Assembly (NCBI GenBank): GCA_963726745.1
Contig: CAVSDR010000006.1
Coordinates: 448,001 to 512,000, forward strand
Source: an uncultured Verrucomicrobiae bacterium
GTDB taxonomy: Bacteria > Verrucomicrobiota > Verrucomicrobiia > Chthoniobacterales > UBA10450
DNA: 64,000 nucleotides
Direction: 5' to 3'
Positions within the stretch are counted from its first letter, which is position 1; the number at the start of each line of letters is the position of its first letter. Positions 3 to 62,844 of the stretch are shown piece after piece. Both the position numbers and the translations under genes were made by a program. The notes under the pieces are model-generated. The model had not been told where the DNA came from. It did no database searches and was given only the letters and a program-made list of their open reading frames with translations.

Positions 3-1085
3 AAGGTCGACGGGCCGCATTTCGCCGGCTGGGAGATTTATCACATGAAAGGCTCGGCGGTAGATCCGGGCCGCATCTTTGCCTCGCAATCGAGCGGCTG
101 GTTCGGCCAGGTCATTCAGCGCTCGAACGATGGCGGGAAAACGTGGGAGACGCCGGGCGGCGGCCCGGGCAAGGATGCCATCGGCATGCCGACCGGCGAG
201 AGCAACAAGTTCGTCTACGAAGGCAAGGCGGGCACGCACATGTGGTATGACGGCACCCAGCACCCGTGGGAGTTCAAGCGCGTCTGGCATCTCGAGCCCT
301 CGTTAGGCGATCCGGATCATGTTTACGCCGGGGTGGAGGACGCAGCTCTGTTTGAATCGAAAGACGGCGGCACGAGCTGGCAGGAGTTGGCCGGGCTGCG
401 CACGCACCACAGTGGCCCGCAATGGCAGCCGGGCGCGGGGGGAATGTGCCTGCACACCATCCTGATTGATCCGACGAATCCGCGCCGCCTTTACGTCGCC
501 ATCTCGGCCGCGGGCGCCTTTCGGAGCGACGACGCGGGCGCGACCTGGAAGCCGATCAACAAAGGGCTGCAGTCGCAGTTCATGCCCGACCCGGACGCTG
601 AAGTGGGCCATTGCGTTCATCGCATCGCTTTTCATCCCTCGCGGCCGGAGACGCTCTTCATGCAGAAGCATTGGGACGTGATGCGGAGCGACAACGCCGG
701 CGATCTTTGGTCGGAAGTAAGCGACAATCTCCCGAGCGATTTTGGTTTCCCGATCGATGTGCACGCGCACGAGCCGGAGACAATCTACGTCGTCCCGATC
801 AAGAGCGACTCGGAGCATTTCCCGCCGGACGGAAAGCTGCGCGTCTACCGCAGCCGGAGCGGCGGCGGCGACTGGGAAGCGCTGACCAAAGGGCTCCCGC
901 AGGAGAACTGCTACGTGAACGTCCTCCGCGACGCCATGGCGGTGGATTCGCTGGACGAATGCGGCGTCTATTTCGGCACGAGCGGCGGTCAGGTTTACGG
1001 GTCGCGCGATGGCGGCGATACCTGGGAAGCAATCGTGCGCGACCTGCCGCCGGTGCTCTCGGTCGAAGTGCAGACACTCCCGTGA
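3..1085 (+). CDS. BNR/Asp-box beta-propeller protein (exo-alpha-sialidase-like), 5' partial
   Basis: Repeated S-x-D-x-G-x-T/S-W Asp-boxes ([36 protein letters not shown]). The frame is open to the window edge. Confidence 0.85.
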
Positions 1086-1379
1086 TCCGCGTCGTCCTGC
1101 CGCATCATCTCCGCACGCTCGCGCGTGTCGGCGACGAGGTGCGTTTGGAATTAGACAGCGAGATCACAACCGCGCGCATCCTGGACGCGCTCGAGGAAAA
1201 GTATCCCGCGCTCCGCGGCAACGATCCGCGAACACGGGACGCTCAAGCGCCGGCCGATGGTCCGCTTTTTCGCCTGCGAAGAAGACATCTCGCTCGAGCC
1301 GACAAACGCTCCCCTGCCTGCTGCCATCGCCGAAGGGCGCGAGCCATTTATCATTTTGGGCGCGATTGCCGGCGGTTAA
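1082..1379 (+). CDS. MoaD/ThiS family ubiquitin-like protein (apparent frameshift ~1220)
   Basis: GTG overlaps the previous stop. [14 protein letters not shown]...YPALRG continues in a shifted frame as [17 protein letters not shown]...GAIAGG*, ending in the C-terminal GG. Confidence 0.8.
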
Positions 1380-1388
1380 GCTGGCGGC

Positions 1389-1814: not shown

Positions 1815-2004
1815 GCACTCGCGCTCCAATTGCGGGTCCTCGCGATCAGCCCGCGTGCTGGCGCGGCGGCGGGCGCGTGCATCTTTCCGGAAGGTGATTC
1901 GCGGGCACGCCGGAAAAATCACACGCCATCTGCGCGGGCCAGACCAGCCAAACCGGCGCGGCGGTCTTGCATTGCCGCCCCGGCAGGCGGATTCGTTTTG
2001 CCTC

Positions 2005-3283
2005 ATGGCAGCCCCTTTCTCCACTGGCGAGACTTTCGCCCGGCAGAGTGACCGCGACGATGCGCTCGCGAAATTTAGACAGCAATTTCACCTGCCAACG
2101 GACGCGCAGGGCGAGCCGCTGATTTATTTTGTCGGCAACTCGTTAGGCCTCCAGCCCAAGGCCGCGCGCGGTTTGCTCGAGCAGGAGCTGGAGGATTGGG
2201 CGCGGCTCGCGGTCGATGGCCATCTGCAGGCGCGCACGCCCTGGTATTCCTACCACGAGACGGTGCGCGAGCCGCTCGCGCGGATCGTCCGCGCGCAGCC
2301 CGAGGAAGTGGTCTGCATGAACAGCCTGACGGTGAACCTGCACTTCCTGATGGCGACCTTTTACCGGCCGACGAAAGAGCGCTGCAAGATCGTGATGGAA
2401 GAGCCGGCTTTTCCTTCCGACACCTACGCGATTCGCTCGCAAATCGAGCATCACGGCTTCGACCCCGAGACCGCGCTTGTGCTCGCGCGGCCGCGCGACG
2501 GCGAGACCACTCTCCGCACCGAAGACATCGAGGCGCTTCTCGAACGCGAAGGCGACTCGGTCGCGCTCGTTCTTTTCGCGGGCGTGAACTTTTTCACCGG
2601 GACAGTTTTTCGATGTCGCCCGCATCACTGCGGCGGCGCAGAAGCGCGGTTGCACCGTGGGGATCGATCTCGCGCACGCGGTCGGCAACGTCCCGCTCGC
2701 CCTGCATGATTGGAACGTCGATTTCGCCGTCTGGTGTTCCTACAAATATCTCAACGCCGGGCCAGGCGCAGTCGCGGGCGCGTTCGTGCACGAGCGCCAC
2801 GCCAGGAACACTGCGCTGCCGCGCCTCGCCGGCTGGTGGGGCAACGATCCCGCGACCCGTTTCCGGATGCAGCTCGAGCCGGAGTTCATCCCGGTGCCGC
2901 GGGCCGATGCCTGGGCAGTGAGCAATCCGCCGATCCTTTCGATGACGCCGCTGCGCGCCTCGCTCGCGCTTTTTGACGAGGCCGGCGGAATGGAACCGCT
3001 GCGCGCGAAATCGGAGAAGCTCACCGGCTACCTCGAGTTCCTCCTCGGGCAAATCGGCTCGAGCCGCTTCTCGATCATCACGCCGCGTGAGCCGGGCGCG
3101 CGCGGCTGCCAGCTATCGATCGTGGTCCACGAGCATCCGAAGGAGCTCTTCGCCAAGCTCGAGGCCGCAGGGGTGCGCTGCGATTTCCGCGAGCCGAACG
3201 TCATCCGGGCCGCGCCGACGCCGCTTTACAACAGCTTCCACGACGTCTGGCGTTTCGCGCAGATCCTCGCGGCGCATCACTGA
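2005..3283 (+). CDS. kynU: Kynureninase, 3-hydroxykynureninase-type (apparent frameshift ~2600)
   Basis: YFVGNSLGLQPK, MNSLTVNLH, DLAHAVGN, WCSYKYLNAGPG, SNPP, CDFREPNVIR; split across ORFs 1855-2709 and 2657-3283. Confidence 0.92.
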
Positions 3284-3304
3284 GAGCGCGCTGCCTAACG
3301 ACTG

Positions 3305-3715: not shown

Positions 3716-3824
3716 TGGTTAGGCTCTCCCCTTAGCACGGTCAATGCCACCCAGCCGCTGGCCCTTGAGGCGGCCCATAGCTTTTCCCTCTTTCTTCGCG
3801 GAGCGATTCGCCGATTCTTCTCCC

Positions 3825-6212: not shown

Positions 6213-6260
6213 CGCTCGCTGCACTGAAGTTGCCGCCTAAAGCTGGCGGCCTAACGAACG

Positions 6261-6794: not shown

Positions 6795-7550
6795 GTGGCC
6801 GCACTCGCCGAGATCGTTCGTTATGCCGACAGCTTTCTGCGGATCGGCGCCTCGGGCGACTGGGCGAACGCGCTTAACGGCCTTCAGGTCGAGAACGCCG
6901 GCGAGGTCCGGAAAATCGGCGCGGCGGTCGATGCTTCCACGCGCACCTTCGAGGCCGCGAGCAATGCCGGGGTCGACCTGCTCGTGGTCCATCACGGCTT
7001 GTTCTGGGCCGGGCTGCGGCCGATCACCGGGCCGCTCCGCCGCCAGCTCGCGCTCGCCTTTGCGAGAGATCTCGCGCTCTACAGCGCGCATCTGCCGCTC
7101 GACGTCCATCCGGTCGTGGGCAACAACGCTCTCCTCGCGACCGCGCTCGGATTGGAAAACCCAACGCCCTTTCTCGAAACCAAGGGGCAGCTCGTCGGCC
7201 TGCGCTTCGAGGCTGAGTTCGCGCTTCCCAAGCTGGCCACAAAGCTTGAGCAGTCGTTAGGCAGCGAGATCAAGGTTTTCGCCAGCGGGCCCACGATCAC
7301 GAAACAGATCGGTGTCATCACCGGCGGCGCCGGCTCGGAAATTTACCAGGTGGCCGCGGAAGGCATCGACACCTTCATCACCGGCGAAGCGCCCCACTGG
7401 GCGGCGGTCGCGGCCGAGGAAATAGGCGTCAACCTCTTGTTAGGCGGACATTACGCGACCGAGACCTTCGGCGTGAAAGCGCTCGCGGCGCACCTCGCGG
7501 AACGCTTCGCCCTTCCGTGGGAATTTTTCGACGCGCCCACCGGTTTGTGA
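6795..7550 (+). CDS. Nif3-like dinuclear metal centre protein
   Basis: NGLQVE, VHHGLFW, SAHLPLDVHP, GNN, FITGE, GHYATETFG. Confidence 0.92.
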   Translation: MAALAEIVRYADSFLRIGASGDWANALNGLQVENAGEVRKIGAAVDASTRTFEAASNAGVDLLVVHHGLFWAGLRPITGPLRRQLALAFARDLALYSAHLPLDVHPVVGNNALLATALGLENPTPFLETKGQLVGLRFEAEFALPKLATKLEQSLGSEIKVFASGPTITKQIGVITGGAGSEIYQVAAEGIDTFITGEAPHWAAVAAEEIGVNLLLGGHYATETFGVKALAAHLAERFALPWEFFDAPTGL

Positions 7551-9265
7551 TGCATCTCGTCTTTGTCTTCCTCGGCTTCTTTGCGCTCGGCGCGGTCTTG
7601 CTCGTCTGCGTCCTCTTCCTCGCGCAACAAGGGCAGCGCTTGCGCCGCTTGGAGCGCGCGGTGCAAGAACTCCAGGGCCCGCGGGTCCCGGTGCCGGAAG
7701 TTCGGTCCTCGCTGCCGCCCGTGCCGCCCGCGGTGCCCCGGCGCGCGATCGATTGGGAAGCGTTCCTGGGCGTAAAACTTTTCGCCTGGATTGGCGGCTT
7801 CGTCCTCTTCCTCGGGGTCGTCTTCCTGGTGAAGTATTCCTTCGAGAACAACCTGATCACGCCCGCGCTCCGCGTGTTTCTTGGGCTGCTCATCGGCCTC
7901 GCGCTCGTCACTGCCGGCTGGCTGACCGCCCGCCGCCGCTATCGCATCCCCGGGCAAAGTCTCTGCGCCACCGGCTTGCTCGTGCTCTACGCCGCCATCT
8001 TCGGCGCGCACACTTTCTACGGCTTGATCTCGTTAGGCAGCGCTTTCCTGGGGATGTCGCTCGTAACCGTGGGCGCGTTTCTTCTCGCGGTAAAACTGGA
8101 CGCTGCGGTCGTGGTCACGCTCGGCTTGCTCGGCGGGTTCCTCACCCCGCCGTTGCTCAGCAACACGCGCCAGTCCTGGGCCATCTTCGGTTACATCGCG
8201 CTGCTTGATTCCGGGATTGCCGCGGTCGTTTTGCGGAAGCGCTGGGATTATCTCCTCGCGCTGGCCGCGCTCGGCACGGTCGCGCTCGAACTCGCCTGGC
8301 TGCCGACTGACGATGCCTCCCGCCTTGCCCTCGGCTTCCCGATTTTCCTCGGGCTGCAGGCGCTTTTTCTCGCGGTCGTCCTGCTGCGCCAACGCCTCGA
8401 GCCGGTCGAGCATTGGTCGGTGCCCTCGGCGGCGGCGGTCGGCTGCGGCTCGCTCGTGCTCGTCCTCGCCGCGCTCGAGTTGCCGACATTGGCGGCCAAC
8501 TTCGCGCTCATTTTTGGCAGCACTTTGATCGCCGATACCGGACTGCTCGCGCTCGCTTTTTGGAGACCAAAAACTGCGCAGCCCGCCTTCACCGCGCGCC
8601 ACCTCGCAGCCGCGCTCGCCCTGGGCCTGACCTGCGCGATCGAGTGGCAATGGCACCAGCTCGCGCTCCCCAATGTCCCGCCCGCACTCGAGCTCGGCTG
8701 GTATCTGGCCTTCTTCCTTCTCTTTTACGGCTTCCCGTTTTTCCTCAACGGCCGAAGCACCTGGCCGTGGGTCACGAGCGCCTGGGCCGGCGTGCTCCAC
8801 TTCTCGTTAGTCTACGAGGTCGTGCGGGTGCATTTTCCCGCGTGGCGGAATGGCTTCCTCCCCGCCGCTTTCATCCTGCCGTATGCCTTCGCCGTCTGGT
8901 GGCTCGCGCGACGGCGCGCACCGGGCGGAAGTGACGCGCGCCTGGTCTGGCAGGGCGCGGCCGCGATCTACTTCCTCTCGCTCGTTTTCCCGATTCAATT
9001 CGAGCGCGAATGGATCACGCTCGGCTGGGGCGTGGAGGGTTTTGCGCTCCTCTTGCTCGGGATGAAAAAGCGGATCCGCCCGCTCCGTTATGCCGGGGTC
9101 ATCTTGCTCGCGCTCACCCTGCTGAAGCTCTTCCTCTACGACCTTGCGAATCTCAGCCAGCTCTACCGCATCGGCGCTTTCATCGGGGTGGCCGTGATCC
9201 TCCTGGTGGCGTCGTTCGTTTATCAGCGCTTTCTCGCGCCCGATAAAAACACGGAGAGCGTTTGA
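7550..9265 (+). CDS. DUF2339 family membrane protein
   Basis: DWEAFLGVKLFAWIGG, LGLLGGFLTP, LKLFLYDL...RIGAFIGV; many TM helices. Confidence 0.82.
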   Translation: MHLVFVFLGFFALGAVLLVCVLFLAQQGQRLRRLERAVQELQGPRVPVPEVRSSLPPVPPAVPRRAIDWEAFLGVKLFAWIGGFVLFLGVVFLVKYSFENNLITPALRVFLGLLIGLALVTAGWLTARRRYRIPGQSLCATGLLVLYAAIFGAHTFYGLISLGSAFLGMSLVTVGAFLLAVKLDAAVVVTLGLLGGFLTPPLLSNTRQSWAIFGYIALLDSGIAAVVLRKRWDYLLALAALGTVALELAWLPTDDASRLALGFPIFLGLQALFLAVVLLRQRLEPVEHWSVPSAAAVGCGSLVLVLAALELPTLAANFALIFGSTLIADTGLLALAFWRPKTAQPAFTARHLAAALALGLTCAIEWQWHQLALPNVPPALELGWYLAFFLLFYGFPFFLNGRSTWPWVTSAWAGVLHFSLVYEVVRVHFPAWRNGFLPAAFILPYAFAVWWLARRRAPGGSDARLVWQGAAAIYFLSLVFPIQFEREWITLGWGVEGFALLLLGMKKRIRPLRYAGVILLALTLLKLFLYDLANLSQLYRIGAFIGVAVILLVASFVYQRFLAPDKNTESV

Positions 9266-11043: not shown

Positions 11044-12159
11044 TCAGCCCAACGCCTGCGCCAGGTCTTCGATCAAATCATCGGGATGCTCCAGACCGAT
11101 CGAGACCCGGAGCAAGCCCTGCGGCGTGAGCGGACTCTCGCCGGCGATCGAGGCGCGATGCTCGACCAGGCTCTCGACCCCGCCGAGGCTGGTCGCGCGC
11201 ACGAAGAGCCGCAGCTTCCCCGCCGCCGCCATCGCTGCCTCCGCTCCACCGCGGACGACGAAGGAAAGCATCCCGCCGCCCGCGCTCATCTGCCGCGTCG
11301 CGATTTCGTGCCCGCGATGACTCGTTAGGCTGGGATAATTGACCCGCTCCACCTGCGGATGCGTCGCGAGAAATTCCGCCACCTGCCGGGCATTCTCGCA
11401 ATGCCCGCGCATCCGCCACGGGAGCGTGCGCAGGCCGCGCAAGAGCAGCCAGCAATCGAACGGCGCCGGCACCCCACCGACAAGCGCCTGATTCTGCCGC
11501 ACCCGTTCGAAGAATTCCCCGCTTTCTCGCGCGACCACCATCCCGCCCATGACGTCGCTATGGCCGCCGAGATATTTCGTGGTCGAATGCACCACCAGAT
11601 CGCAACCGAGCGCCAGTGGCCGTTGCACGATCGGCGCCCAGGTATTGTCGCAGGCGCAGAGCGCGCCGGCCTCGTGCGCAAGCGCGGCGACCGCGGCCAG
11701 GTCGGTGATTTTCAGCTGCGGATTGGACGGCGATTCGGTCCAGACAAGGCGCGTCTTGCTGGTTAATTTCGCGCGCACCGCCGCGAGGTCGCTCAGGTCC
11801 ACAAAGTCGACTGCGAGGCCCCACGGAATAAGCACCTCGCGCAGGAGCTTGGTCGCGCCGTGATACATCTCGTCCGGCGCGATCACATGGTCGCCCGGGC
11901 GCAGTGCCTGGAAGACTGCCGCCGTCGCCGCCAGGCCCGAAGCGAAAGCCGCCGCGACCGCGCCGCCCTCGATCTGCGCCATCGCTTCCTCGAGCGCGCG
12001 GCGGTTGGGATTATCGCTCCGTGCGTAGACGTAGCCACTGGGATAACTCCCATCGACCGCGCGCTCGAAGGTGGTGGAAAGCTGGATCGGCGCGGCCACG
12101 GCGCCGGTCGCGGCATCCACTTCGTGTCCGGCGTGCACCGCCAAAGTCTCAATGCGCAT
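11044..12159 (-). CDS. PLP-dependent trans-sulfuration enzyme (cystathionine gamma-synthase/lyase family)
   Basis: YARSDNP, FASGLAA, ESPSNP, DNTWA, HSTTKYLGGHSD, SLGGVESL, RVSIGLE. Confidence 0.9.
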   Translation of the reverse strand: MRIETLAVHAGHEVDAATGAVAAPIQLSTTFERAVDGSYPSGYVYARSDNPNRRALEEAMAQIEGGAVAAAFASGLAATAAVFQALRPGDHVIAPDEMYHGATKLLREVLIPWGLAVDFVDLSDLAAVRAKLTSKTRLVWTESPSNPQLKITDLAAVAALAHEAGALCACDNTWAPIVQRPLALGCDLVVHSTTKYLGGHSDVMGGMVVARESGEFFERVRQNQALVGGVPAPFDCWLLLRGLRTLPWRMRGHCENARQVAEFLATHPQVERVNYPSLTSHRGHEIATRQMSAGGGMLSFVVRGGAEAAMAAAGKLRLFVRATSLGGVESLVEHRASIAGESPLTPQGLLRVSIGLEHPDDLIEDLAQALG

Positions 12160-15445: not shown

Positions 15446-15451
15446 AACACC

Positions 15452-37305: not shown

Positions 37306-37313
37306 GTGTGATT

Positions 37314-43137: not shown

Positions 43138-43160
43138 GCGATTAGCCGGCATTTTCAGCC

Positions 43161-49161: not shown

Positions 49162-50112
49162 AAAGGCCACCTCCACCGCGAGCGCTTCCTGGATGTTGCG
49201 CCCGAGCTGGTCGCGCAATTCCTCCAGCCGCCGCAGCCGCCGGAGGCAATCCGTGGTCGTGAGCTTGCCGGCTATTTCCTGTGTCTTCCCGGCCGCGGCC
49301 GGCAACTCCGAGCCGGCCAGACCCTCGCACGCGCGGAGCACATCCGACCACCAGCGGAAAAGCACCTCCACCAGATCGGCGCGCCGTTGCACGTAAAGGC
49401 TTTCGTTCATCGCCTTGTAGAAATCCTCGCGCTCGTCCAGCCAGGCGCCGTCGGTGGTTTTCTTGTAGCGCTCCTCCTCCGCTTTCAAGGCCGCGGCATT
49501 CTCTGTCTGGATGCCTTCGCGCAAGCGACCTAGAAGCCGCTGGAAACCTTGCGCCAGCCGATAGGCTCCCTGCACTCCACTGCTCGCCGGCCCGCCAATC
49601 TCGCTGAGTAAAGCCACCAGCTCCGTCTCTTCCGCGGAAGGCGCAATCCCCGCCGGGGTCGCAAGCGGGATCGGCACGCAGCGCGAGCGGATCGTATCCA
49701 TGAGCGCTTCCGGGAGCGCGCTCAAGAGCAGGAGCAACGAGTCGTTAGGCGGCTCTTCCAGCGTTTTCAGGAAAGCGTTCGCGGCTTGCGGCTGGAGGCG
49801 GTCGGCATCGGAAACAATCGCGACTTTGCGTCGTCCGCCGGTGGCGCGCATCTGCAGCGCGTGCTCCAGCGTGCGCACCTGCTCGATCACAATGCGGCGC
49901 GATTTCGAGCTTGGCTCCGCCAGAAAAACATCGCTCGCGTTCCCGGAGAAGACATCCTCGGCCTCGGTGCCGTTGACCAAGTTAGCCAGCCGGCTGGCGA
50001 GCGCGCGTTTGCCGCTCCCAGCCGCGCCGGAGATGAGATAAGCGTGGGCCAGGCGCTCCTGCTCGTGCGCGCGGCGCAGGTATTGGAAAGCAGCTTCGGG
50101 CGAGAAAGACAT
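49141..50112 (-). CDS. holB: DNA polymerase III delta' subunit
   Basis: LAHAYLISG..GSGK, IEQVR, AANAFLKTLEEPP, TIRSRC; follows tmk. Confidence 0.9.
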   Translation of the reverse strand: MSFSPEAAFQYLRRAHEQERLAHAYLISGAAGSGKRALASRLANLVNGTEAEDVFSGNASDVFLAEPSSKSRRIVIEQVRTLEHALQMRATGGRRKVAIVSDADRLQPQAANAFLKTLEEPPNDSLLLLLSALPEALMDTIRSRCVPIPLATPAGIAPSAEETELVALLSEIGGPASSGVQGAYRLAQGFQRLLGRLREGIQTENAAALKAEEERYKKTTDGAWLDEREDFYKAMNESLYVQRRADLVEVLFRWWSDVLRACEGLAGSELPAAAGKTQEIAGKLTTTDCLRRLRRLEELRDQLGRNIQEALAVEVAFLSVFRF

Positions 50113-51226: not shown

Positions 51227-51276
51227 CGCCGGCCTTTGCGCTTGTCGGGCAGGGCCGCGAAGCTGAGAACATCGAC

Positions 51277-52084
51277 GTGACCGCCACTGCCGCGACTGCC
51301 TTCCCCATCCTCGCGGCCGCGGAGCGCGAAGCGCTTCCGCTGGTGGTTTCGCTGCACGACGTGGCCCCGGCGACGCAGCCCGCGTGCGAGAAAATGCTGG
51401 CTGACCTCGCACGCTGCGGCGTGCGCGTGACCTCGCTCCTGGTCGTGCCCGATTACCATCATCGCGGAAAGGCGACCGCCGATCGCGATTTCCTCCAATG
51501 GCTGCGCGACCTCGAGGCCGCCGGGCACGAGATCGTGATTCACGGCTATTTCCATCAGCGCCCACGCGCGGCCCACGAGTCGTTAGGCGACAAGTTCATC
51601 ACCCGCGCCTACACCAGCGACGAGGGCGAGTTTTACGATCTCGACTACGAGGAAGCCTTCGCCCGGATCACGCGGGCGCGGGAGGAATTCACAGCAGGCC
51701 GGGCTGCAGCCGCGCGGCTTCATCGCCCCGGCCTGGCTCTTGAGCGCGGCGGGCGAGCGCGCGGCGCGCGATGCGGAAATGGAATACACCACCCGCCTAA
51801 CGAACGTGCGCGATCTTCGCCGCGGGGCGACCTACCCGTCGCGCTCGCTGGTCTACAGCGTGCGCAGCGCCTGGCGGCGCGCGGCCAGCCTGCTCTGGAA
51901 CGGCGCGCTCGCCCGTGCCTTGCAGGCTGCCCCGCTCCTCCGCCTGGGCCTGCATCCGCCGGACTATGAGCACCCCGAGATCTGGGCGCAGGTGCTGCGA
52001 CTGGCGGGACGCTTCGCGGAAGCACGCAGGCCCACGACCTACTGCGATTGGATTGCGGAGCAACGCCGGATGGCGCCCCGATGA
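51277..52084 (+). CDS. Polysaccharide deacetylase-like (DUF2334-like) protein (apparent frameshift ~51700)
   Basis: VSLHDVAP, HGYFH, EGEF, GFIAPAW (shifted frame), LRLGLHPPD. Confidence 0.8.
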
Positions 52085-54492
52085 GCCGCTGCGACCTGCA
52101 CCTTCACTCCCGCTCGAGCGATCGCTCGGAGGAATGGCTCTTTCGCCGCTTCGATTTTCCCGACAGCTACTCGAATCCGCGCGAGCTCTACACCGCGCTC
52201 CGGCATGCCGGGATGGATTTCGTCACCCTGACGGATCACGACACGATCGAGGGCGCGCTCCAGATCGCCGATCTTCCCGGCACGTTCCTGAGCGAGCAGG
52301 TGACGACTTATTTCCCGCAGGACCCCTGCAAGATTCACTTGTTAGTCTGGGGAATCACGGAAGCGCAGCATGCGGAGATCGCGCGGCTGCGGGAGAACAT
52401 CTTCGAGCTGCAGGCTTACCTGCAGGCGGAAAACCTGGCGCACGCCGTGGCTCATCCGCTTTACAGCATCAACGGCAAGCTTCAGGCCTCGCACCTGGAA
52501 CGCTTGATCTTGCTGTTTAAAACTTTCGAGGGGATCAACGGCCTGCGCGACGCGCTCTTGAGCGAGCTCACCCTGGAGATCTTCCGCGGCCTAACGAAAG
52601 CAAAGATCGAGGAGCTGGCCGAGCGCCATCAGCTGGCGCCGACGCACGCCGAGCCGTGGAAGAAAGTGCTCGTGGGCGGCTCGGACGACCACGGCGGAAT
52701 GTTTCTTGCGCATGCCTACACCGAGACGCCGCCCGCAGCCGCGCCGGCGGAGTTCCTCGAACATCTGCGCGCGGGCCGATGCGAGGCGCGCGGCGAAGGC
52801 GGTACGCCGCTGGCGCTTTCGCACGGCTTTTACAACACGCTCTATTGCTTCATCCAGGATCACTTCGAGGAGCGCCTGGGCGCGGGCGCGCCGCTCGTGC
52901 AGGGAATGTTTTCGCGCTTCATGGAAGGGCGCGACCCGACCGAATTTTCCCTGCGCGAGAAGGCCAACTTCGTCGCCCAGGGCGTGCTCTCCGGGAAAAT
53001 CTTCGACCTCGCCAAGCCGGGGAACGTTTCCCTGTGGAAAGAACTTTCCGGCTATTTCGCGAAGCCGGAAATGAAGGCGCTCCTGGCGGAGGAAATGGAA
53101 GGCGAAACCTCGCCCGAGCGCCGGACTTTCCTGATGGCGAACATGGTCAGCGAGCAGCTCGCGTTTCGCTTCTTCGAGCAGTTCGTGCGCAAGCTGAACG
53201 CGGGCGACGTCATCGGGAGCATGCAGGCGGTCAGCGGGATCGTGCCCATCCTGATATTGCTTTCGCCCTACATCTACGGCTTCCACAGCCAGGCGCCCTC
53301 GCGCACCTGGCTGCGCGAAGTTTGCCAGCAACTTGCCGGCCGCGTCCCGGCGCAGTTGCAGAACCAAAAGCGCGCCTGGTTTACCGACACTTTGGAAGAC
53401 GTGAACGGCGTCTCCACCACCATCCGCCGGATGACCGCCGCGGCTGCGGAAGCCGGCGAGCAGCTCGTGGTCGTGACCTCGCGCGGCGAGCTCACGGTCG
53501 ACGAGATCCCGATCGCCAATTTCAAGCCGATTGGCGAGTTTGAGCTTCCGGAGTACGAGCTGCAAAAGCTCAGCTTCCCGCCCGTCCTGCAGGTGCTCGA
53601 TTACATCCAGCGCGAGCGTTTCACCGAGATCATCATCAGCACGCCCGGCCCGATGGGGCTGACCGGATTGCTCGCGGCGAAGATGCTCAACCTCCGCACC
53701 AGCGGCATCTACCACACCGATTTTCCGGAATACATCCGCATCCTGACCGAGGACAGCTTCCTGGAAAATCTCGGATGGACTTACATGCGCTGGTTCTACG
53801 GCCAGCAGGACACGGTTTACGTGAACTCCGAGCAGTACCGCCGGAGCTGGCTCGAGAAAGGCATCCCCCCGGAGAAGCTGCAGATTCTCCCACGCGGCCT
53901 CGACCTCGCGCTCTTCGATCCGAAACGACGCGACGCGAAATTTTGGCAGCGCTTTGAGCGCACCGCCTTGCCTAACGAGACCGTGCGCCTGCTCTACGTC
54001 GGCCGAATTTCGCGCGAGAAAGATCTCGACGTCCTGGTCGCGGCCTTCCGTCTTTTGGGCGAAACGGCCGCGCCGGTGAGCCTTTGCTTTGTCGGCAATG
54101 GTCCCTACGAAAAGGCGCTGGCCGAGCTGCTTCCGGAAGCGATTTTTACCGGCCGGCTCGCGGGCGAAGAACTCGCGACCGCCTATGCTTCCGCGGATAT
54201 CTTCGTCTTCCCGAGCACCACCGACACCTTCGGGAATGTGATCATCGAAGCGCAGGCCTCCGGGTTGCCGGCGATCGTCTCCGATGTCGGCGGGCCGTGC
54301 GAACTGGTGACGCATGAGCAGGATGGGCTGGTGACGAAAGCGCGCGACGCGGAAGCTTTCGCCGCCGCAATTCGTCGCCTAACGAACAATCCAGGGGAAC
54401 GCGCCGAGCTGGGCGCGCGTGCGCGGGCCAAGGTGCTCGACCGGAGCTGGCCGCACGCCTTCGAAAAATTTTGGGCGGCGACCGCAGTCTAG
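52081..54492 (+). CDS. PHP-domain / GT4 glycosyltransferase fusion
   Basis: DLHLHS, TDHD, AHP, GSDDH (PHP); NGVS, YHTDFP, VGRISREK, FPSTTDTFGNV.IEAQASGLP (GT4). Confidence 0.88.
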   Translation: MSRCDLHLHSRSSDRSEEWLFRRFDFPDSYSNPRELYTALRHAGMDFVTLTDHDTIEGALQIADLPGTFLSEQVTTYFPQDPCKIHLLVWGITEAQHAEIARLRENIFELQAYLQAENLAHAVAHPLYSINGKLQASHLERLILLFKTFEGINGLRDALLSELTLEIFRGLTKAKIEELAERHQLAPTHAEPWKKVLVGGSDDHGGMFLAHAYTETPPAAAPAEFLEHLRAGRCEARGEGGTPLALSHGFYNTLYCFIQDHFEERLGAGAPLVQGMFSRFMEGRDPTEFSLREKANFVAQGVLSGKIFDLAKPGNVSLWKELSGYFAKPEMKALLAEEMEGETSPERRTFLMANMVSEQLAFRFFEQFVRKLNAGDVIGSMQAVSGIVPILILLSPYIYGFHSQAPSRTWLREVCQQLAGRVPAQLQNQKRAWFTDTLEDVNGVSTTIRRMTAAAAEAGEQLVVVTSRGELTVDEIPIANFKPIGEFELPEYELQKLSFPPVLQVLDYIQRERFTEIIISTPGPMGLTGLLAAKMLNLRTSGIYHTDFPEYIRILTEDSFLENLGWTYMRWFYGQQDTVYVNSEQYRRSWLEKGIPPEKLQILPRGLDLALFDPKRRDAKFWQRFERTALPNETVRLLYVGRISREKDLDVLVAAFRLLGETAAPVSLCFVGNGPYEKALAELLPEAIFTGRLAGEELATAYASADIFVFPSTTDTFGNVIIEAQASGLPAIVSDVGGPCELVTHEQDGLVTKARDAEAFAAAIRRLTNNPGERAELGARARAKVLDRSWPHAFEKFWAATAV

Positions 54493-55411: not shown

Positions 55412-57604
55412 ATGAAAGTTCAGACCAAAATCAGCCTGCTCTTGGTCGCAGTCGTGGCGACTTTCCTCAGCGGGCTGTTTGCGCTCCGCGCTTACGAGGG
55501 CTTCAAGTTCCGCCACATCGCCGAGGAACGCTTCCGCGAGCGCAACGTCTCCTTCGACGAATTCCTGCAATACCACGGGCAGCCGCTCGAGACGCTCGCG
55601 CGCGACTTCACCACTTGGGACCAAATGGTCGCGGCGATCGCCAGCGGCGACGCGCCCTGGTTTCGCGATAATCTCAGCAGCGCAGTCCTCGAAAGCTTCC
55701 ACGCAAACGCCGCCTGGGTCCTCGGGCCCGAGGGCGCGCCGGTCTTCGCGCTCAACAACCTCAACGCCGGCGAGACGCTCGAAGCTCTCGGCCTGCCGCG
55801 CGCGGCGCTCGGGCAAATCTTCGCCTCGGCAAAGCTGGTGCACTTTTTTCTGGAGACGCCGCAGGGTTTGCTCGAGCTGCGCGGCGGCTCGATTCACCCC
55901 TCGCGCGACGCCGCGCGGGAAACGCCGGCGCGCGGCTATTTTTTTGCCGGCCGCCTCTGGAGCCAGCCCGCGCTGCGGGAGATGTCGCTCTTCACCGGGA
56001 ACGAGGTCACGCTCGTCCGGCCGGCGCCGCGCGTGGGCGCAAATTCCAATAACGAGCGCAATGGCTTGATCGCCTTTTCGCGCGTGCTCCGCGGATGGGA
56101 CGGGCAGCCGCTGGCCGAGCTCGTGGTCCGGAACGAATCGCCCATTGTCCGCGCGCTCAATCGCTCGAGCGAACGCCTGCTCGCGGCGCTCGTCGGCTTC
56201 TCCGTGGCCTTGCTCTTCCTGCTCGCGCTCGCGCTCGTCCTTTGGGTCAGCCGGCCGCTCCGGCGCACCATGGAAAGCCTGCAGCGGAACGATCCCCGGC
56301 CGATCGCGCGCCTGGCGGGGCAACGCTCGGAATTCGGCGCGCTCGCGCGCACGATCCAGAAATTCTTCGAGCAGCGCGATAATCTCGTGCGCGAAATGGA
56401 GGAGCGCCGCGCGGCTGAAGAGGCGCTGCGCCAAAGCGAAGAGGAGCGGCGCCATGCGCAAAAGATGGAAGCGATCGGGCGCCTGGCCGGGGGAGTGGCG
56501 CACGATTTCAACAACTTGCTGACCGCGATCATCGGCTACGCCGAGCTGGTGCGCGGCCGCTCCGGGCACGATCCAGTCGTTAGGCAGCACGCTGATCTGA
56601 TCCTGAAGGCGGGCGAGCAGGCCGCGGGCGTGACCCGGCAATTGCTCGCCTTTAGCCGCAAGCAAATCCTCCAGCCGCGCGTGATCGACCTGAACCAGCT
56701 CGTGCGCGAAATGGAGAAGCTCCTCCGGCGGGTGATCGGCGAACGCTTCGAACTGCGCACCGAGACGGCGGCTTGCGAAGGCCGGGTGTTGGCCGACCCG
56801 ACGCAGCTCGGGCAAGTCCTGATGAACCTGGGGGTGAACGCGCGCGACGCCATGGGCGACGCCGGTTGCATCACCATTCGCACGGCCAATGTGCGGCTGG
56901 ATGCGGCCGCCGCGCGCGCCATTTCCAAGTCTCTCGCCGCGGGCGACTACGTGGAATTTTCCGTAGCCGATAGCGGTGCGGGAATGGACGCGGAAACGCG
57001 CGCGCACCTCTTCGAGCCGTTCTTTACCACCAAGGGCCCGGGCAAAGGAACCGGCCTGGGCCTGGCCACGGTCTACGGCATCGTGCGGCAAAGCGGCGGC
57101 GGAATCACGGTCGAGAGTGCGCCGGGCGCAGGCAGCACTTTCCGCGTTTTCCTCCCGCAAGAGAGCGCCCCGGTCGAGGAAACGCGCGCCCTCACACCCT
57201 CCTCCCAGCGCGGGCAGCACTTCGAAACCATCCTCGTGGCCGAGGACGAAGAGATCGTGCGCGAGCTCGTCTGCGCGGTCTTGGAAGAGGAAGGCTACAC
57301 CGTGCTGTGCGCGCCCGATGCGGCCGGGGCGCTGCGCGCCGCGCGCGCCTATGAAGGCAAGATCAGCCTGCTCGTCACCGATGTCATCATGCCGCAGACG
57401 AACGGCCCGGAGCTGGCCGCGCTCCTCGCCGCGGAACGCCCGGAAATGAAAGTGCTGTTTGTTAGCGGTTACTCCGATACCGAGTTCGCGCACGACCAGA
57501 CACTCGAGGAGCGCACGGAACTGTTACAAAAGCCTTTCACGCCCGAAACCCTGGCGCGCAAAGTGCGCGAAGTGATCGAAGAGCACCAGCATGTCGCTGT
57601 CTAA
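55412..57604 (+). CDS. Hybrid sensor histidine kinase/response regulator
   Basis: Two TMs flanking a periplasmic sensor; [29 protein letters not shown]-terminal receiver (TDVIMP, KPF). Confidence 0.92.
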
Positions 57605-57971: not shown

Positions 57972-58442
57972 CTAGCGCACGAAGAGCGCGTAGAGCGGCC
58001 CGGCGGGATTAAGCAGCTCGTGCTTGCCCCCGGCGAGGGCGAGCGCGACCTGGAAAATCCAGAGCGCAACCAGCCCGGCGAGGCCGCCGGCGAGCTGGCG
58101 CGGCGTCAGGCGGAAGTTGCCGCCTAACGAGAGCTGGCGGCGCAGGGCGAGCTCGAGCGCGAGCTTGAAGCCGAGGAGCAACCCCGCGAGCGCGACTGGA
58201 AAAGCCAGCCAGTTGAAGTAGAGCGCGCGGCTGAAGTCGCCGGCTAAAAGATGGTGCAGCGCGCGCGTGGTGCCGCAAAAAATGCAGGGCAAACCAGTAA
58301 CCGCGCCGCAGGTGGGCCGCAGCCAACCGAAGCTCGCCGGCGGCAGCGCGCGCAGGAGAAGCGCGCCCACGGCGAGCGTAAACAGCGCGCCCGCCCGCAA
58401 GGCGAGAGAGGTGCGTCCGAGGTTTTCCGGGAGCAGGCGCAT
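57972..58442 (-). CDS. DUF2752 family membrane protein
   Basis: C...TGLPCIFCGTTRA. Confidence 0.78.
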   Translation of the reverse strand: MRLLPENLGRTSLALRAGALFTLAVGALLLRALPPASFGWLRPTCGAVTGLPCIFCGTTRALHHLLAGDFSRALYFNWLAFPVALAGLLLGFKLALELALRRQLSLGGNFRLTPRQLAGGLAGLVALWIFQVALALAGGKHELLNPAGPLYALFVR

Positions 58443-59396
58443 TTAGGTTTGCACCGGCGGCGGCTCAAGCGGCGGCGCGGGCTCGGCGACCACGAAACTG
58501 GCCCAGGGATCGAAGTCGGCCCCGAACTGGCGCACAAAGAGCAGCGTGTAGCCGGTGCCGAAAACAAAAATAGGCAGCAAGATGACCGTGCCGAGATACG
58601 GGATGGCCGTCAGGCAGCAGGTCGCGCAAGTCGCCAGGCAAGCGACGAGCATCATCGCCAGGCTCAAGACCCAGGAGAACAGCAGGTAAAGCAGGACCGG
58701 CCCAGGTTCCGCGGCGATTGCGCCTAACGAGGCGCGGAAGGCTGCGCTCGCGCCGCAACGCCGCCGATACATGATGGGCTGCATGAAAGCGGCCAGGAGG
58801 CTGAGCGCGATCAGGAGCGCGAAGAGCACCCCGAAAAGCAGGAGCGCGCCCACGACCAGCTCCACGCCTTCCGGCGGCCGCCCATGCAGCGCGGCCGGGA
58901 GCCACAAGGGCGAGCCGGCCACCCCCACGATCACGAGCACGCTCGTAATCACAATCACGAGAAAGCCGAAGTAGCTGTTCCCCTCGCGCCGGAATTCGTG
59001 CCACGGCTCCACGATCGCGGCGCGATTGCGCACGATGCAGTCGATAAAAATGAATTTCCCGCGCGACCCGATCCAGAGACAGAGGAGAGCGATCACGAGC
59101 ACGAGCAGGCCACCGACCGCGATCAACGGAAAGACCCACGCCGGCAGCGCGTCGCCCGCGGTTCCGGCAACCCCGCTTGCGGCCGAGTGATAGCTCGTCT
59201 TCCAATCGCCGCCGCCGGGAATGCGGAAATTAAAGCCGCTGCCACCGCCGCCCGCGAGATGAGAGAGAAAGGCGGCAAAGCCGATCACGAACCATTTCCG
59301 GAGGTCGAAAGGTTCGAGGAGGATGCGCTTGGTCAGCTCAAGCGCGGCATTGAAAGGCGCGAAGATTTCGATCCGGCGCTCGGGGCTTCCATTCAT
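58443..59396 (-). CDS. Hypothetical multi-pass membrane protein
   Basis: PFDLRKWFVIGFAAFL, several TM segments, CATCC motif. Confidence 0.72.
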   Translation of the reverse strand: MNGSPERRIEIFAPFNAALELTKRILLEPFDLRKWFVIGFAAFLSHLAGGGGSGFNFRIPGGGDWKTSYHSAASGVAGTAGDALPAWVFPLIAVGGLLVLVIALLCLWIGSRGKFIFIDCIVRNRAAIVEPWHEFRREGNSYFGFLVIVITSVLVIVGVAGSPLWLPAALHGRPPEGVELVVGALLLFGVLFALLIALSLLAAFMQPIMYRRRCGASAAFRASLGAIAAEPGPVLLYLLFSWVLSLAMMLVACLATCATCCLTAIPYLGTVILLPIFVFGTGYTLLFVRQFGADFDPWASFVVAEPAPPLEPPPVQT

Positions 59397-59499: not shown

Positions 59500-62400
59500 G
59501 TGGCGCGCTTTTCTCGATCTCGTTGGCTCCTCCTCGCGGGCGCATTGCTTGTTCTGCTCTCCGCGGCTGCGCAGGCCTACGTCCTCCTGCCGTATCGCTG
59601 GGCCGACGGGACGCAGATTCAAATGCACCTCGCGCTCACGCGTTCCTCGGGTCCGCTGCAGGATGGGAGCGTCTCCTGGAATGCCTCCGCCGCGGATGCG
59701 CTCGCCCTTTGGAATCAAAACCTCGGCCAGGTGCGCCTGGTCGATGCCGGGCCGGCCAGCGCCGCGGCCAATGACGGGGCCAACACGGTCGCCTTCGCGA
59801 GCACGGTCTACGGCCAAAGCTGGGGCGGAAACACCCTCGCAGTGACCTTGAATTACTCTCCCAGTGGCGCCTTTTTCACCGAGACCGATGTGCTCTTCAA
59901 TAGCGCGCGCAACTGGGATTCCTACCGCGGCGACCTGCAGGGTTCCGGCCCCGGCGGGACCTACGATCTCCACCGCGTAGCCTTGCATGAATTTGGCCAC
60001 GTCCTCGGCCTGGATCATCCGGATGAACATGGCCAGCCCGGCCGGGTGGCGATGATGAACTCGATCATCAGCAATCTCGATCACCTGGCCGATGACGACC
60101 TCGCCGGCGCGCGCGCGCTTTATGCCGCGGTCATCACCAGCACCCTCAGCTCGCAAACGGTGCGCAGCGGCGACGCATTTGCCTACCAGATCCGGGCGAA
60201 CAACTCGCCCACAAGCTTCCGCGCGGAGGGTCTGCCCCCGGGGATGCAGGTCGACCCGGCCAGCGGCTTGATCAGCGGCCGCTGCCCGACAAGCGGCCTT
60301 TTCACCGTCGACCTCACGGCCGAGAATGCCAGCGGCGGGACGGCTACCGGGCGTTTCCTGCTGCAAGTCCTCCCCTACCCCCTAACGAGTGCCAGCCGGC
60401 CCGCGCCCACGCTCCTCGGCAGCGCGTTTGCCTACCAGATCACCGCGCCGAATAACCCCACCAGCTTCAGCAGCAGCGCGCTTCCCGAGGGCCTCGCGCT
60501 CGACCCGGCCACGGGCCGGATCAGTGGCACCGCGACGATGGCGGGCACGTTCACCGTCCAGGTAATCGCGCGCAGCGCGACCTCGGAAGCGAGCGGCTCG
60601 ATTGTGATCGAGATCTCGCCGCCACGCATCACCAGCCCGGCCACGATTCCAGCGATCGAGATCAACCAAACCTTCAGCTACCAGGTGATGGCGACGCATT
60701 CACCGACCGCATTCAGCGCCACCGGATTGCCGCCCGGCTTCCAGATCGATCCCGCCACGGGCTGGATCACCGGCACCGCCACGAACCCGGGAAACTACAG
60801 CGTGACTCTGCGCGCGGAGACGGCCTACGGCCCGGCGACCTTGCAGCTTTCGCTCGTGATTCTGGTCGGGCGGATCAACAGCGAACTTAACCCGGCGGGG
60901 CAGCCGATCGGCAGCGCTTTCACTTACCAGATCACGGCGACCAATCGCCCGACCGCCTTCCGCGCGCAGCCGCTCCCCTCCGGGTTGCAGCTCGATCCTG
61001 CGACCGGAAAAATCTCCGGCGTGCTCACCTTGAGCGGGACTTTTTCGGTCACGCTCACGGCGCAGGGAAGCGCAGGCGACGTCAACGCGCTCTTGCGGAT
61101 CACCGTTTTCCCGGCGGCTTCGGTGATCCCGTCGACCGTGCCGGAGTTTGAGCTCCCGCAGGTGTTCACGCTCATGGCTGATCCCGTGCGCCCGCGACTT
61201 TACCTCGCCTGTGCGAGCGGGATCGCGGTGGTCGATTCCTTTACCTACGGGCAAATCAAGTTGCTGCCTATGTCCGAAAGGCCGCCGGCGCTCGACCTCT
61301 CGCCGGACGGGACGCGGCTCTACGCGACCGCGGGTTCGCAAGGCGTGATCAAAGTGGTGGACTTGCAGACGCTCGAGTTTCTCCCGGATGTCCCCGTTCC
61401 CGGCCGGAATCTGTGGCAACTGCGCGCGGGCGCGGATGGGATGCTCTACGTGATCGACTACGGCGACACCAGCGCGGTCCTCCAGATCGACCCGGCGAAC
61501 GGCGCCATCGTCGGCGCCCTCCGGCCCAACCCTCCGGGCGCACCGACACCGATCGACACGCTCGTGCTCAGCCCTGATCGGCGGAACCTTTTCGTGGCCG
61601 AGCTCTACCGCAGCACCGGAACTCTCGCGCGCTACGCGCTCAATCCCGGCGTCGCCCCGGAGTTGGGGCAAAAAATAGCCAGCAACATCAATATCCAAAA
61701 GCTCTCGGTCACGGCCGATGGACGCGCGCTGGCCCTGGTCTTCGATGGCGGCAGCTCCCTGCGTTCGGTCGACAACCTCACCTCGGAGATTGGCCGGTTT
61801 CCGGCGCCGCTCAGTCCGCTCGAAATCGCCTTCAGCGCGGACGGGCGGTATGCCGTCCAGAGCTATCGCTCGGATCCGCGGGTGGATCTGTTCGATGCGC
61901 GCTCGGGTGCGCTTGTGCGCAGCGTGGCGCTGCCCGAGGCGCTCTATCCCCCGCCCACGGAAATTTTGCCCGATCTCGCTTTTGACGGGGCAAGCAGCCG
62001 CTTCTTTGTCGTGGCGCCAGGGATTGGAAGCGGCAGCCGCATTTTCGTTTACCAACTCTCCGCCGGGCCGGCTCCGCCCCGTCAACTCCTTAACGTCTCG
62101 ACCCGCCTGCGCACCCAGACCGGGGAAAACGTGCTTATCGGCGGCTTCATCGTCACCGGGCGGGCGCCCAAGCGCGTCGTCCTGCGCGCGATCGGGCCGT
62201 CGTTCGCGCTCGCAGGAAAATTAGCCGACCCGACGCTGGAACTGCACGGGCCCGACGGCTTGCTCGCGACCAACGATAACTGGAACGAACATCGCCAGGA
62301 AATCCTGCTCACGACCGTCCCGCCGACAAATGAGCGCGAGGCGGCGATCGTGGCCACGCTCGACCCGGGCGCTTACACCGCAATCGTACGCGGCTTGGGT

Positions 62401-62844
62401 GAGACCTCAGGCGTGGCCTCGGTGGAACTCTATGATCTCAACCCCGCGAGCGACTCGCGCATTGCCAACATCTCCACCCGCGGCCGCGTGGAGACCGGAG
62501 ACAATGTCATGATCGGCGGCTTCATCCTCAGCGGCCCGGACTCGACCAAGGTGATCGTGCGCGCGCTTGGTCCCTCGTTAGGCGACCGGGGCGTCGCTGG
62601 CGCACTCGCCGACACCACGCTCGAGCTTTACAACGGCAACGGCGCGCAGCTCGCCGCGAACGATGACTGGCAGACGGACCAGGCGCAGGAAATCATCGAC
62701 TCGACCGTGCCGCCGGAGGATCCGCGGGAATCCGCCATCGTCCGCACGCTCACGCCGGGGGCTTACACCGCGATCGTGCGCGGGAAAGCGGCCAGCAGCG
62801 GCGTGGCCCTGGTGGAAGTCTACAATCTCGAGCCGGCTCCTTAA
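59500..62844 (+). CDS. Secreted matrixin-like zinc metalloprotease with 4 Ig-like repeats, beta-propeller and duplicated C-terminal domain
   Basis: Signal peptide; HEFGHVLGLDH plus Met-turn AMMN; 4x F.YQ(I/V).A...PT.F....LP.G...DPA.G.I.G; YVTN-like repeats; 2x N(V/I)STR..GGFI. Confidence 0.85.
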   Translation: MARFSRSRWLLLAGALLVLLSAAAQAYVLLPYRWADGTQIQMHLALTRSSGPLQDGSVSWNASAADALALWNQNLGQVRLVDAGPASAAANDGANTVAFASTVYGQSWGGNTLAVTLNYSPSGAFFTETDVLFNSARNWDSYRGDLQGSGPGGTYDLHRVALHEFGHVLGLDHPDEHGQPGRVAMMNSIISNLDHLADDDLAGARALYAAVITSTLSSQTVRSGDAFAYQIRANNSPTSFRAEGLPPGMQVDPASGLISGRCPTSGLFTVDLTAENASGGTATGRFLLQVLPYPLTSASRPAPTLLGSAFAYQITAPNNPTSFSSSALPEGLALDPATGRISGTATMAGTFTVQVIARSATSEASGSIVIEISPPRITSPATIPAIEINQTFSYQVMATHSPTAFSATGLPPGFQIDPATGWITGTATNPGNYSVTLRAETAYGPATLQLSLVILVGRINSELNPAGQPIGSAFTYQITATNRPTAFRAQPLPSGLQLDPATGKISGVLTLSGTFSVTLTAQGSAGDVNALLRITVFPAASVIPSTVPEFELPQVFTLMADPVRPRLYLACASGIAVVDSFTYGQIKLLPMSERPPALDLSPDGTRLYATAGSQGVIKVVDLQTLEFLPDVPVPGRNLWQLRAGADGMLYVIDYGDTSAVLQIDPANGAIVGALRPNPPGAPTPIDTLVLSPDRRNLFVAELYRSTGTLARYALNPGVAPELGQKIASNINIQKLSVTADGRALALVFDGGSSLRSVDNLTSEIGRFPAPLSPLEIAFSADGRYAVQSYRSDPRVDLFDARSGALVRSVALPEALYPPPTEILPDLAFDGASSRFFVVAPGIGSGSRIFVYQLSAGPAPPRQLLNVSTRLRTQTGENVLIGGFIVTGRAPKRVVLRAIGPSFALAGKLADPTLELHGPDGLLATNDNWNEHRQEILLTTVPPTNEREAAIVATLDPGAYTAIVRGLGETSGVASVELYDLNPASDSRIANISTRGRVETGDNVMIGGFILSGPDSTKVIVRALGPSLGDRGVAGALADTTLELYNGNGAQLAANDDWQTDQAQEIIDSTVPPEDPRESAIVRTLTPGAYTAIVRGKAASSGVALVEVYNLEPAP

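Follow-up and report, generated by a model that had tools for sequence, protein, structure and literature searches.

A dispersed non-palindromic 9-mer in an uncultured Verrucomicrobiae bacterium and its family, with further lineage-specific words, as candidate self-DNA tags

The introduction of a recent preprint (bioRxiv 10.1101/2025.10.24.684340) describes uptake sequences as words of 9-10 nt that are present hundreds or thousands of times per genome, and it names them only for Neisseriaceae and Pasteurellaceae. Further papers describe a distortion of the proteome by the uptake signal sequence (USS) of Pasteurellaceae (PMC2817400), name ComN/PpdA as the predicted USS receptor (PMC12616744) and propose, as a recent third case, the cyanobacterial repeat HIP1 as an uptake recognition sequence linked to type IV secretion proteins (PMC13756078). 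Here, a 64,000-nt stretch of an uncultured Verrucomicrobiae bacterium (the window, positions 448001-512000 of contig C6) was investigated regarding a 9-mer, GCCTAACGA, which recurs throughout its coding DNA. The word, including a frequent G at its end, is called M1, i.e. GCCTAACGA(G). The literature searches yielded no paper dealing with M1, nor any on uptake sequences of Verrucomicrobia or Udaeobacter, and among the matches listed for the letters of the motif there were only primers and unrelated sequences.

The genome studied (G000) comprises 3,406,779 bp on seven contigs (C1-C7) with a guanine plus cytosine (GC) content of 0.62-0.64. It is 94.7% complete, hence gene absences in it are provisional. 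Other genomes are labelled G and genera g plus a number. The family of G000, f1, includes genomes labelled Chthoniobacterales, Candidatus Udaeobacter, Spartobacteria and Verrucomicrobia. Its tallies include the unpublished genomes G001, G008, G032, G036, G043, G162, G196 and G222, on which no conclusion depends. Genes were called with our own caller based on open reading frames (ORFs), giving 2843 genes and 85.7% coding DNA. This caller is crude and misses genes, thus the split of word copies into coding and non-coding is approximate.

In the window, GCCTAACGA occurs in 31 exact copies between positions 300 and 62583. The plus strand has 14 of them and the minus strand 17, the latter spelled TCGTTAGGC on the plus strand (Table 1). 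The recount is identical to that of a first-pass annotation of the window. The reading frames reported there for copies inside genes were also recovered, with 12 copies encoding Ser-Leu-Gly (SLG), six x-Leu-Thr-x, four x-Pro-Asn-(Glu/Asp) and two Val-Val-Arg-Gln (VVRQ). Another copy runs over the end of a gene, and six lie outside gene calls; at least one of these six (49742) is inside a dnaX-like ORF missed by the caller. Dinucleotide shuffles of the window yielded a mean of 0.29 copies and a maximum of three. Sites with at most one mismatch amount to 55, compared with 10.6 expected. One-mismatch copies make up 24 of them and not about 17, as had been estimated, but all 11 such sites for which the annotation gave coordinates are present. 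Rfam produced no family match in the window.

In the whole genome M1 occurs 1312 times in 3.41 Mb, on all seven contigs and at 0.32-0.53 copies per kb. Among the 9-mers GCCTAACGA is the second commonest, and its extension CTCGTTAGGC (820 copies) is the commonest 10-mer. Markov models of order 0-3 predict 15.9-24.3 copies, corresponding to an observed/expected ratio of 54-82; models of order 5 or more account for the word only by virtue of having been trained on it. The enrichment persists under a codon-aware null. With synonymous codons shuffled per gene (20 replicates), 20.2 copies are expected in coding sequences (CDS) and 930 were observed, about 46-fold more. Core length (9-10 nt) and copy number fit those of uptake sequences.

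The 930 copies fully inside CDS are distributed over four frames, 420 as SLG (antisense), 217 as x-Leu-Thr-x, 199 as x-Pro-Asn-Glu/Asp and 94 as x-Val-Arg-x. In total 71% of the copies lie in called CDS, 229 are intergenic and 153 extend across gene ends. The two remaining frames hold TAA or TAG, with which 90 and 60 called genes, respectively, terminate. As the first-pass annotation had claimed, rare codons are forced by the word, which accounts for 14.5% of the TTA, 14.3% of the CTA and 6.8% of the AGG codons of the genome. The proteome is inflated as well, with 738 SLG tripeptides (464 expected), 420 of them spelled TCGTTAGGC, and 233 PNE tripeptides (99 expected). The sequence logo shows a strict 9-mer followed by G at position 10 (62%), T or A at position 11 and A or T at position 14 (70%). 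The 5' side is weakly pyrimidine-rich, and no conservation is found beyond about 14 nt. Variants differing by one letter are raised at word positions 1, 2 and 8 only and occur elsewhere mostly at or below expectation; for GCCTAATGA no copy was found where nine were expected. M1 is a DNA signal and not a protein or codon effect. The general claim of a driven or selected genome-wide signal is thereby supported, the word being strand-neutral, enriched beyond the codon null and common to relatives.

Tandem arrays are further sources of frequent words in this genome. An array of the hexamer GCCAAC/ACGCCA brings its 12-14-mers to counts of about 140, and an array of the CCGACT type reaches about 50. 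Both are probably repeat-rich genes.

M1 was located on the locally G-rich strand in 566 and on the C-rich strand in 608 cases (48%, p=0.23). Control 8-mers of the same genome reach 65-69% strand polarity, thus the strand assignment works, and the strand neutrality claimed from the window extends to the chromosome without replication polarity. The most replication-polar 8-mers of G000 are G-rich (GGCGAGGG 192:86, GGGGAGCG 116:58) and are candidates for a signal resembling FtsK-orienting polar sequences. Gaps below 200 bp between M1 copies are depleted (2.5% of 1305 gaps vs 7.5% for an exponential distribution). The density of M1 climbs with local GC content (0.2 and 5.6 copies per 10 kb at GC 0.58 and 0.66, respectively), yet the word itself is GC-poorer than the genome. 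Its two largest deserts, C7:60030-95400 (35 kb) and C6:413728-437792 (24 kb, just upstream of the window), contain genes of DegT aminotransferases, glycosyltransferases, Wzy/Wzz, an ABC transporter and exosortase. These deserts are classic exchangeable surface-polysaccharide or O-antigen DNA, and M1 is missing from such low-GC islands. In practice, the words can serve as markers to flag foreign islands and to help check the binning of metagenome-assembled genomes of the family.

For the origin of the copies, window positions 34001-39800 were aligned with three congeners and positions 49001-53960 with five, the congeners being 70-77% identical in DNA. Both alignments together contain 20 columns with M1 in at least one genome. 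Seven of the ten aligned copies of G000 were found in this genome only, two were common to one relative and one (49742) was present in all six genomes. Opposite each aligned copy the relatives have letters and no gap, mostly ordinary codons such as GCCTGACGA or GCCTCACCG. Hence, the copies arise by substitution and not by insertion. Dispersed repeats of the repetitive extragenic palindrome or miniature inverted-repeat transposable element type were rejected on account of the unconserved flanks past about 14 nt, the 71% share in CDS and the missing gaps. A contig from a soil metagenome, with about 97% identity to the window, has T for C at 54383 inside the copy 54377-54385, thus representing a close relative without this copy. 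Read runs matched 7% of the sampled words, and the contigs obtained from them were short pieces of relatives, 90-99% alike.

In a first draw of 18 congeners 138-2291 copies of M1 were counted per genome, compared with 30-118 for reversed-word controls. The word was matched in all 201 family genomes (36 genera), with strong enrichment in most genera and in most of the 200 genomes other than G000. High counts were obtained for g38 (1241-4633), g16 (1808-2628), g31 (687-1836), g1 (160-2435) and g39 (354-1803). M1 is low in g19 (22-198 copies, often barely over control), and the counts of 35 and 60 in g46 and of 13 in g36 do not exceed those of the reversed word. The family maximum, 4633 copies in 4.3 Mb, belongs to G200, where a 163-kb sample gave 182 copies, an observed/expected ratio of 149 and the same flanks as in G000. 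A dialect of M1 in the low-count genomes G002, G161 and G058 was rejected, as these carry a weaker M1; in samples of the weakly enriched G161 and G058 it is still the top dispersed word (observed/expected 17-21). For the g19 genome G153 a weak shifted variant, CTAACGAGA, was detected (16 copies in 200 kb, observed/expected 29).

Outside the family, 12 other families of the order had 1-19 copies of M1, below their controls. The 8-mer GCCTAACG reached at most 76 copies in each of 298 other Verrucomicrobiota (68 other families) and exceeded its reversed control in none of them, save one with about 20 of each. Samples of 160 kb from two outgroup-family genomes contained no dispersed 8-10-mer above an observed/expected ratio of 12, compared with 77-208 for the G000 control of the same size.

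M1 is not the only word. The first-pass annotation had seen this one alone; M1 itself proved real, but a second family of words in G000, M2, and another in the relatives, M3, were missed, so that its one-word picture is incomplete. M2 has the consensus (CAAG)TYGYYG[G/T/A]CTAAWTT. Counts in G000 are 479 for GCTGGCTAA, 315 for GTCGGCTAA, 122 for GCTGTCTAA and 958 for GYYGGCTAAW, on both strands, in several frames and about 21% outside CDS. In the window GYYGDCTAAW occurs 30 times between 1150 and 62229, with 1.02 copies expected from shuffles. Four copies fall in the aligned regions, and the relatives have ordinary sequence opposite to them. Among the 201 family genomes GYYGGCTAAW was frequent in G000, followed by G015 (254), G036 (190) and G017 (135); the others have at most 92 copies, mostly below control. 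A further congener, G011, contains 394. M2 is nearly private to G000. A composite site of M1 and M2 was rejected, because no fixed spacing occurs and nearest-neighbour distances are near those of independent placement; the regional correlation of both words is weak (rho 0.25).

M3, (C)AAGATCGACAA, was identified in G063 (g46, 100% complete), a genome without M1 enrichment. The 10-mer has 56 copies in 184 kb, an observed/expected ratio of 66 and unconserved flanks. Counted as AGATCGACA, M3 reaches 2894-4941 copies in g39, 2807 in g18, 1655 in g22, 1224-1728 in g27, 685-1788 in g35, 978-1165 in g46, 260-1666 in g47 and about 830-1350 in g44, g43, g24, g26, g29 and g20. In the M1-rich genera g1, g38, g16 and g31 it stays at a baseline of 43-140 copies. 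Genomes of g39 carry both M1 and M3, e.g. G056 with 1803 and 4941 copies, respectively, in 2.9 Mb. Thus, an old word common to the whole family, one belonging to a sub-clade and a young one almost confined to a single species are combined differently from genome to genome. With M2 and M3 beside M1, any picture of a single receptor must accommodate several words.

Other dispersed words were also observed. GTCATCCCGAG(C), unrelated to M1 and M3, has 18 copies in 200 kb of G153 and eight in 184 kb of G063. G002 contains 29 copies of CGGACGGCAA(AGT) in 254 kb, and a local GAAGTAG-type heptamer tandem also inflates its k-mer counts.

Table 1 Copies of M1 (GCCTAACGA) and M2 (GYYGDCTAAW) in the window, with the peptide encoded at the site and the state in aligned relatives where given
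Word	Position	Strand	Context
M1	300..308	-	CDS antisense, SLG
M1	2140..2148	-	CDS antisense, SLG
M1	3293..3301	+	outside gene calls
M1	6249..6257	+	outside gene calls
M1	7254..7262	-	CDS antisense, SLG
M1	8030..8038	-	CDS antisense, SLG
M1	11322..11330	-	overlaps end of CDS 11086-11328
M1	14482..14490	+	CDS sense, SLTR
M1	15659..15667	-	CDS antisense, SLG
M1	16076..16084	-	CDS antisense, SLG
M1	28003..28011	+	CDS antisense, SLG
M1	29946..29954	-	CDS sense, QPNE
M1	34392..34400	-	CDS sense, GLTN; among 3 relatives common to G013 only
M1	35046..35054	+	outside gene calls; one-off forms in relatives
M1	35516..35524	+	CDS antisense, SLG; relatives with GCGCCGAGCCG etc., ungapped
M1	36308..36316	-	CDS sense, LPNE; relatives differ by one letter
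M1	37053..37061	+	CDS antisense, VVRQ
M1	38411..38419	-	CDS antisense, SLG; among 4 genomes in G000 only
M1	43131..43139	-	CDS sense, RLTS
M1	46264..46272	+	outside gene calls
M1	47830..47838	-	CDS sense, TPND
M1	49742..49750	-	kept in all 6 aligned genomes; DNA_pol3_delta2 domain of dnaX-like ORF 49141-51216(-)
M1	51580..51588	-	among 6 genomes in G000 only
M1	51795..51803	+	CDS sense, RLTN; common to G088 only
M1	52589..52597	+	CDS sense, GLTK; CTGACG/CTCACC in relatives
M1	53970..53978	+	CDS sense, LPNE
M1	54377..54385	+	CDS sense, RLTN
M1	56577..56585	-	CDS antisense, VVRQ
M1	58122..58130	+	CDS antisense, SLG
M1	58722..58730	+	CDS antisense, SLG
M1	62575..62583	-	CDS antisense, SLG
M2	1150	-	
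M2	2074	-	
M2	3440	+	
M2	5314	-	
M2	5664	+	
M2	15613	-	
M2	17573	+	
M2	19941	-	
M2	20311	+	
M2	21401	+	
M2	23033	-	
M2	24457	+	
M2	26059	+	
M2	27607	-	
M2	28733	-	
M2	30593	+	
M2	34486	-	
M2	36248	+	
M2	36478	+	
M2	41964	+	
M2	42579	+	
M2	43141	-	
M2	43819	-	
M2	44918	-	
M2	45638	+	
M2	47328	-	
M2	50409	+	
M2	57596	+	
M2	58239	+	
M2	62220	-	

The ORF carrying the fully conserved copy at 49742 encodes 691 aa with an atypical codon-position GC of 0.75/0.56/0.66 and was skipped by the gene caller. Its DNA_pol3_delta2 domain (DnaX/HolB-type, AAA+) begins at residue 374, and upstream of this domain an ORF in another frame, 50112-50753(-), scores separately. The start may have been placed wrongly, the N-terminus may be extended, or dnaX may contain a frameshift.

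The core of M1 was also detected in another phylum. The first 50 kb of plasmid 1 of Gemmatirosa kalamazoonensis (Gemmatimonadota, GC 0.71) contain 39 copies of GCCTAAC and 30 of GCCTAACG, one of GCCTAACGA and two of the reversed control. The strict part common to both lineages is GCCTAAC(G), after which they diverge. The strain, KBS708, is cultured, hence uptake is testable in an organism with the shared core.

Regarding the cause of this pattern, we propose that the words are self-DNA tags driven by biased DNA acquisition, with a probability of roughly 0.45. Molecular drive would have distributed M1 and, in G000, M2 over the chromosome. During natural transformation, fragments bearing the word would be favoured at some step, most likely when DNA is bound on the cell surface by a component of the type IV pilus/Com machinery. 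An allele mutated toward the word would be passed on more often via homologous replacement, and the word would accumulate wherever the protein tolerates the change. DNA uptake, the preference for the word in uptake or recombination and the identity of the reader protein are what we infer in this proposal. All in-silico hallmarks of uptake sequences were found except terminator pairing and a known receptor. The genome contains the transformation genes for ComEC (849-aa frame), a ComEA-like protein (103-aa ORF with HHH_3 domain at C2:230178) and DprA, furthermore three secretins, 16 pilin-like ORFs and ten ATPases of the PilB/PilT family. Conjugation by a type IV secretion system was rejected as the DNA route, VirB4 being found in only three of the 201 family genomes; classical conjugative systems of this type are seemingly rare in f1. 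Transformation is the only route of DNA entry for which genes were found, and biased DNA acquisition is favoured for this reason.

Several points weigh against this explanation. The transformation genes of G000 are widespread in bacteria and hence merely permissive. From the Com proteins considered in the first-pass annotation, ComEC and a ComEA-like protein are present, but no ComP homologue was found; the best ComP_DUS (PF16732) score in G000 was 21.9 bits with a cut-off of 27.3, in a search that did not cover ComN/PpdA. Typical inverted-repeat terminator pairs of M1 were not detected among the 1305 gaps, with 11 neighbour pairs within 100 bp, five of them inverted. No pilin could be assigned as the reader. 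The N_methyl ORFs of G000 (16), G200 (15, M1 only), G056 (18, M1 and M3) and G063 (15, M3 only) were compared by BLASTP of their globular parts, and no orthogroup was present in the M1 genomes yet missing from G063 or limited to the M3 genomes. A variant of the minor pilins as reader of M2 was rejected, too. The 248-aa and 227-aa minor pilins of G000 were searched in 34 congeners; a 61%-identical match occurs in G220, yet this genome has 21 copies of M2, below control. Furthermore, the coding/non-coding split rests on a crude gene caller, and the GCCTAAC(G) core in another phylum needs transfer of the reader or another common cause. To our knowledge, two or three unrelated dense words per genome are without precedent among described uptake sequences, and no member of the family known to us by name is cultured. 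Coexisting unrelated words and the core shared across phyla are not explained by a model with one receptor, thus the rival explanations stay alive.

Concerning the pilins, the minor-pilin operon of G000 (C3:1032978-1034820, three genes) was too diverged to score. Within the genus its minor pilins are 24-40% identical, except for the match in G220, and G011 with its 394 copies of M2 has a homologue of only 29% identity. The operon is situated inside an M1 desert (C3:1022429-1035984). Another desert, C6:622688-636238, contains a pilin-like ORF (C6:624087-624647) 3 kb from dprA.

For the family as a whole, the words could be evolving self-DNA tags, M1 being ancestral, M3 marking a large sub-clade and M2 being recent. 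They would be read by an exchangeable reader unrelated to ComP, and the GCCTAAC specificity of one such reader would be shared with Gemmatimonadaceae, perhaps by gene transfer. This fuller scenario is less likely than not.

The words might instead be bound by one or more proteins that are abundant on the chromosome, for example a nucleoid-associated protein, a loader or a self-sparing defence system, and be kept by selection without a role in import. Several words per genome that change between lineages are easily reconciled with paralogous or exchangeable DNA-binding proteins, and a transferable reader gene would suit the core shared with Gemmatirosa. The very strict core (one-off variants at positions 3-7 and 9 mostly at or below expectation) also fits, and no candidate for a surface receptor emerged. 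On the other hand, no candidate for a chromosomal reader emerged either. Only one of the ten aligned copies is kept in place, which argues against strong positional selection per site, and selection would have to outweigh the cost of rare codons and altered amino acids at more than 1000 sites. We regard this explanation as unlikely.

A signal acting after entry, comparable to Chi, would shield linear DNA from a helicase-nuclease and stimulate recombination, and it would also be a drive. Like Chi, the word is enriched in core DNA and depleted in foreign islands, and such a drive could be strand-neutral if fragments with two ends were the main substrate. However, M1 shows no polarity (48% on the G-rich strand), and RecC was not found in the 94.7% complete G000. 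A long AddAB-type nuclease was not found there either; with its 470 aa, the sole PDDEXK_1 ORF does not attain the size of AddA, AddB or RecB. For a 9-mer, the excess of 54-82 fold is also far above the enrichment of known Chi sites. This possibility is distinctly improbable.

Still somewhat less probable is a mutation or repair bias as proposed for HIP1, in which a methyltransferase, short-patch repair or both turn near-matches into the word. M3 contains GATC and TCGA, word patches differ from the relatives at many adjacent letters within conserved flanks, and lineage-specific words resemble the turnover of modification systems. Two methylases are described as readers of HIP1, for which a role as uptake signal is now also proposed (PMC13756078). 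M1 and M2, however, are non-palindromic and specify 9-17 letters, more than the methyltransferase sites known to us. Vsr was not found in G000, and neither was a D12 adenine methylase, the only methylase class searched for. In the family D12 methylases occur in 36 of 201 genomes and do not follow M3 (one of four in g39, none of five in g35, seven of 21 in g38).

Traces left by a mobile element or by integron recombination are largely excluded and very improbable, since, although GCCTAAC/GTTAGGC fits the attC inverse-core/core consensus (RYYYAAC/GTTRRRY), the best integron integrase score in G000 was 80 bits with a cut-off of 265, the copies are single and not paired at attC spacing (50-140 bp), their flanks are unconserved beyond about 14 nt, and they replace ordinary codons without indels.

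Candidatus Udaeobacter and its kin are among the most abundant soil bacteria. If biased DNA acquisition is the cause, soil genomes would be shaped by kin-biased exchange, given that this lineage, though uncultured, is globally dominant in soil. Under the fuller scenario given above, sequence-specific DNA acquisition of this kind would be a major, modular force in soil bacterial evolution and no longer an oddity of two proteobacterial families. Words of differing age in one family would also constitute a natural experiment, in which the reader could be sought by phylogenetic profiling and the birth of a new word followed.

Compared with known systems, M1 shares with Chi, a self mark for DNA processing, the over-representation in core DNA. 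Unlike Chi, it has no strand polarity, a far stronger enrichment and no RecC or long AddAB-type nuclease beside it in G000. Like the cyanobacterial HIP1 (GCGATCGC), it is hyper-abundant within genes and conserved at the clade level. HIP1 is a palindrome read by methylases, whereas M1 and M2 are non-palindromic; G000 has no D12 methylase or Vsr, and VirB4 is confined to the three family genomes mentioned.

Inverted-repeat terminator pairs are typical of the DNA uptake sequence (DUS) of Neisseriaceae and less so of the USS. M1 is without such pairs, and the ComP_DUS domain protein that reads DUS has no counterpart in G000. DUS dialects are one or a few letters apart, whereas M1, M2 and M3 are largely unrelated and able to coexist. 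In common with DUS, M1 is specific to a clade, varies between lineages, is enriched in core DNA and is not found in exchanged islands, and G000 has a type IV pilus system.

From the USS of Pasteurellaceae M1 differs by its phylum, its unrelated spelling, the recurrence of its core in Gemmatimonadota and the presence of up to three unrelated words per genome. Like the USS, it has a 9-nt non-palindromic core with weaker flanking preferences and lies on both strands, at about one copy per 1-3 kb, mostly single, inside genes and in every open frame. Like the USS, finally, M1 distorts the proteome, is depleted at short spacings and occurs across its family, in which there is more than one word type.

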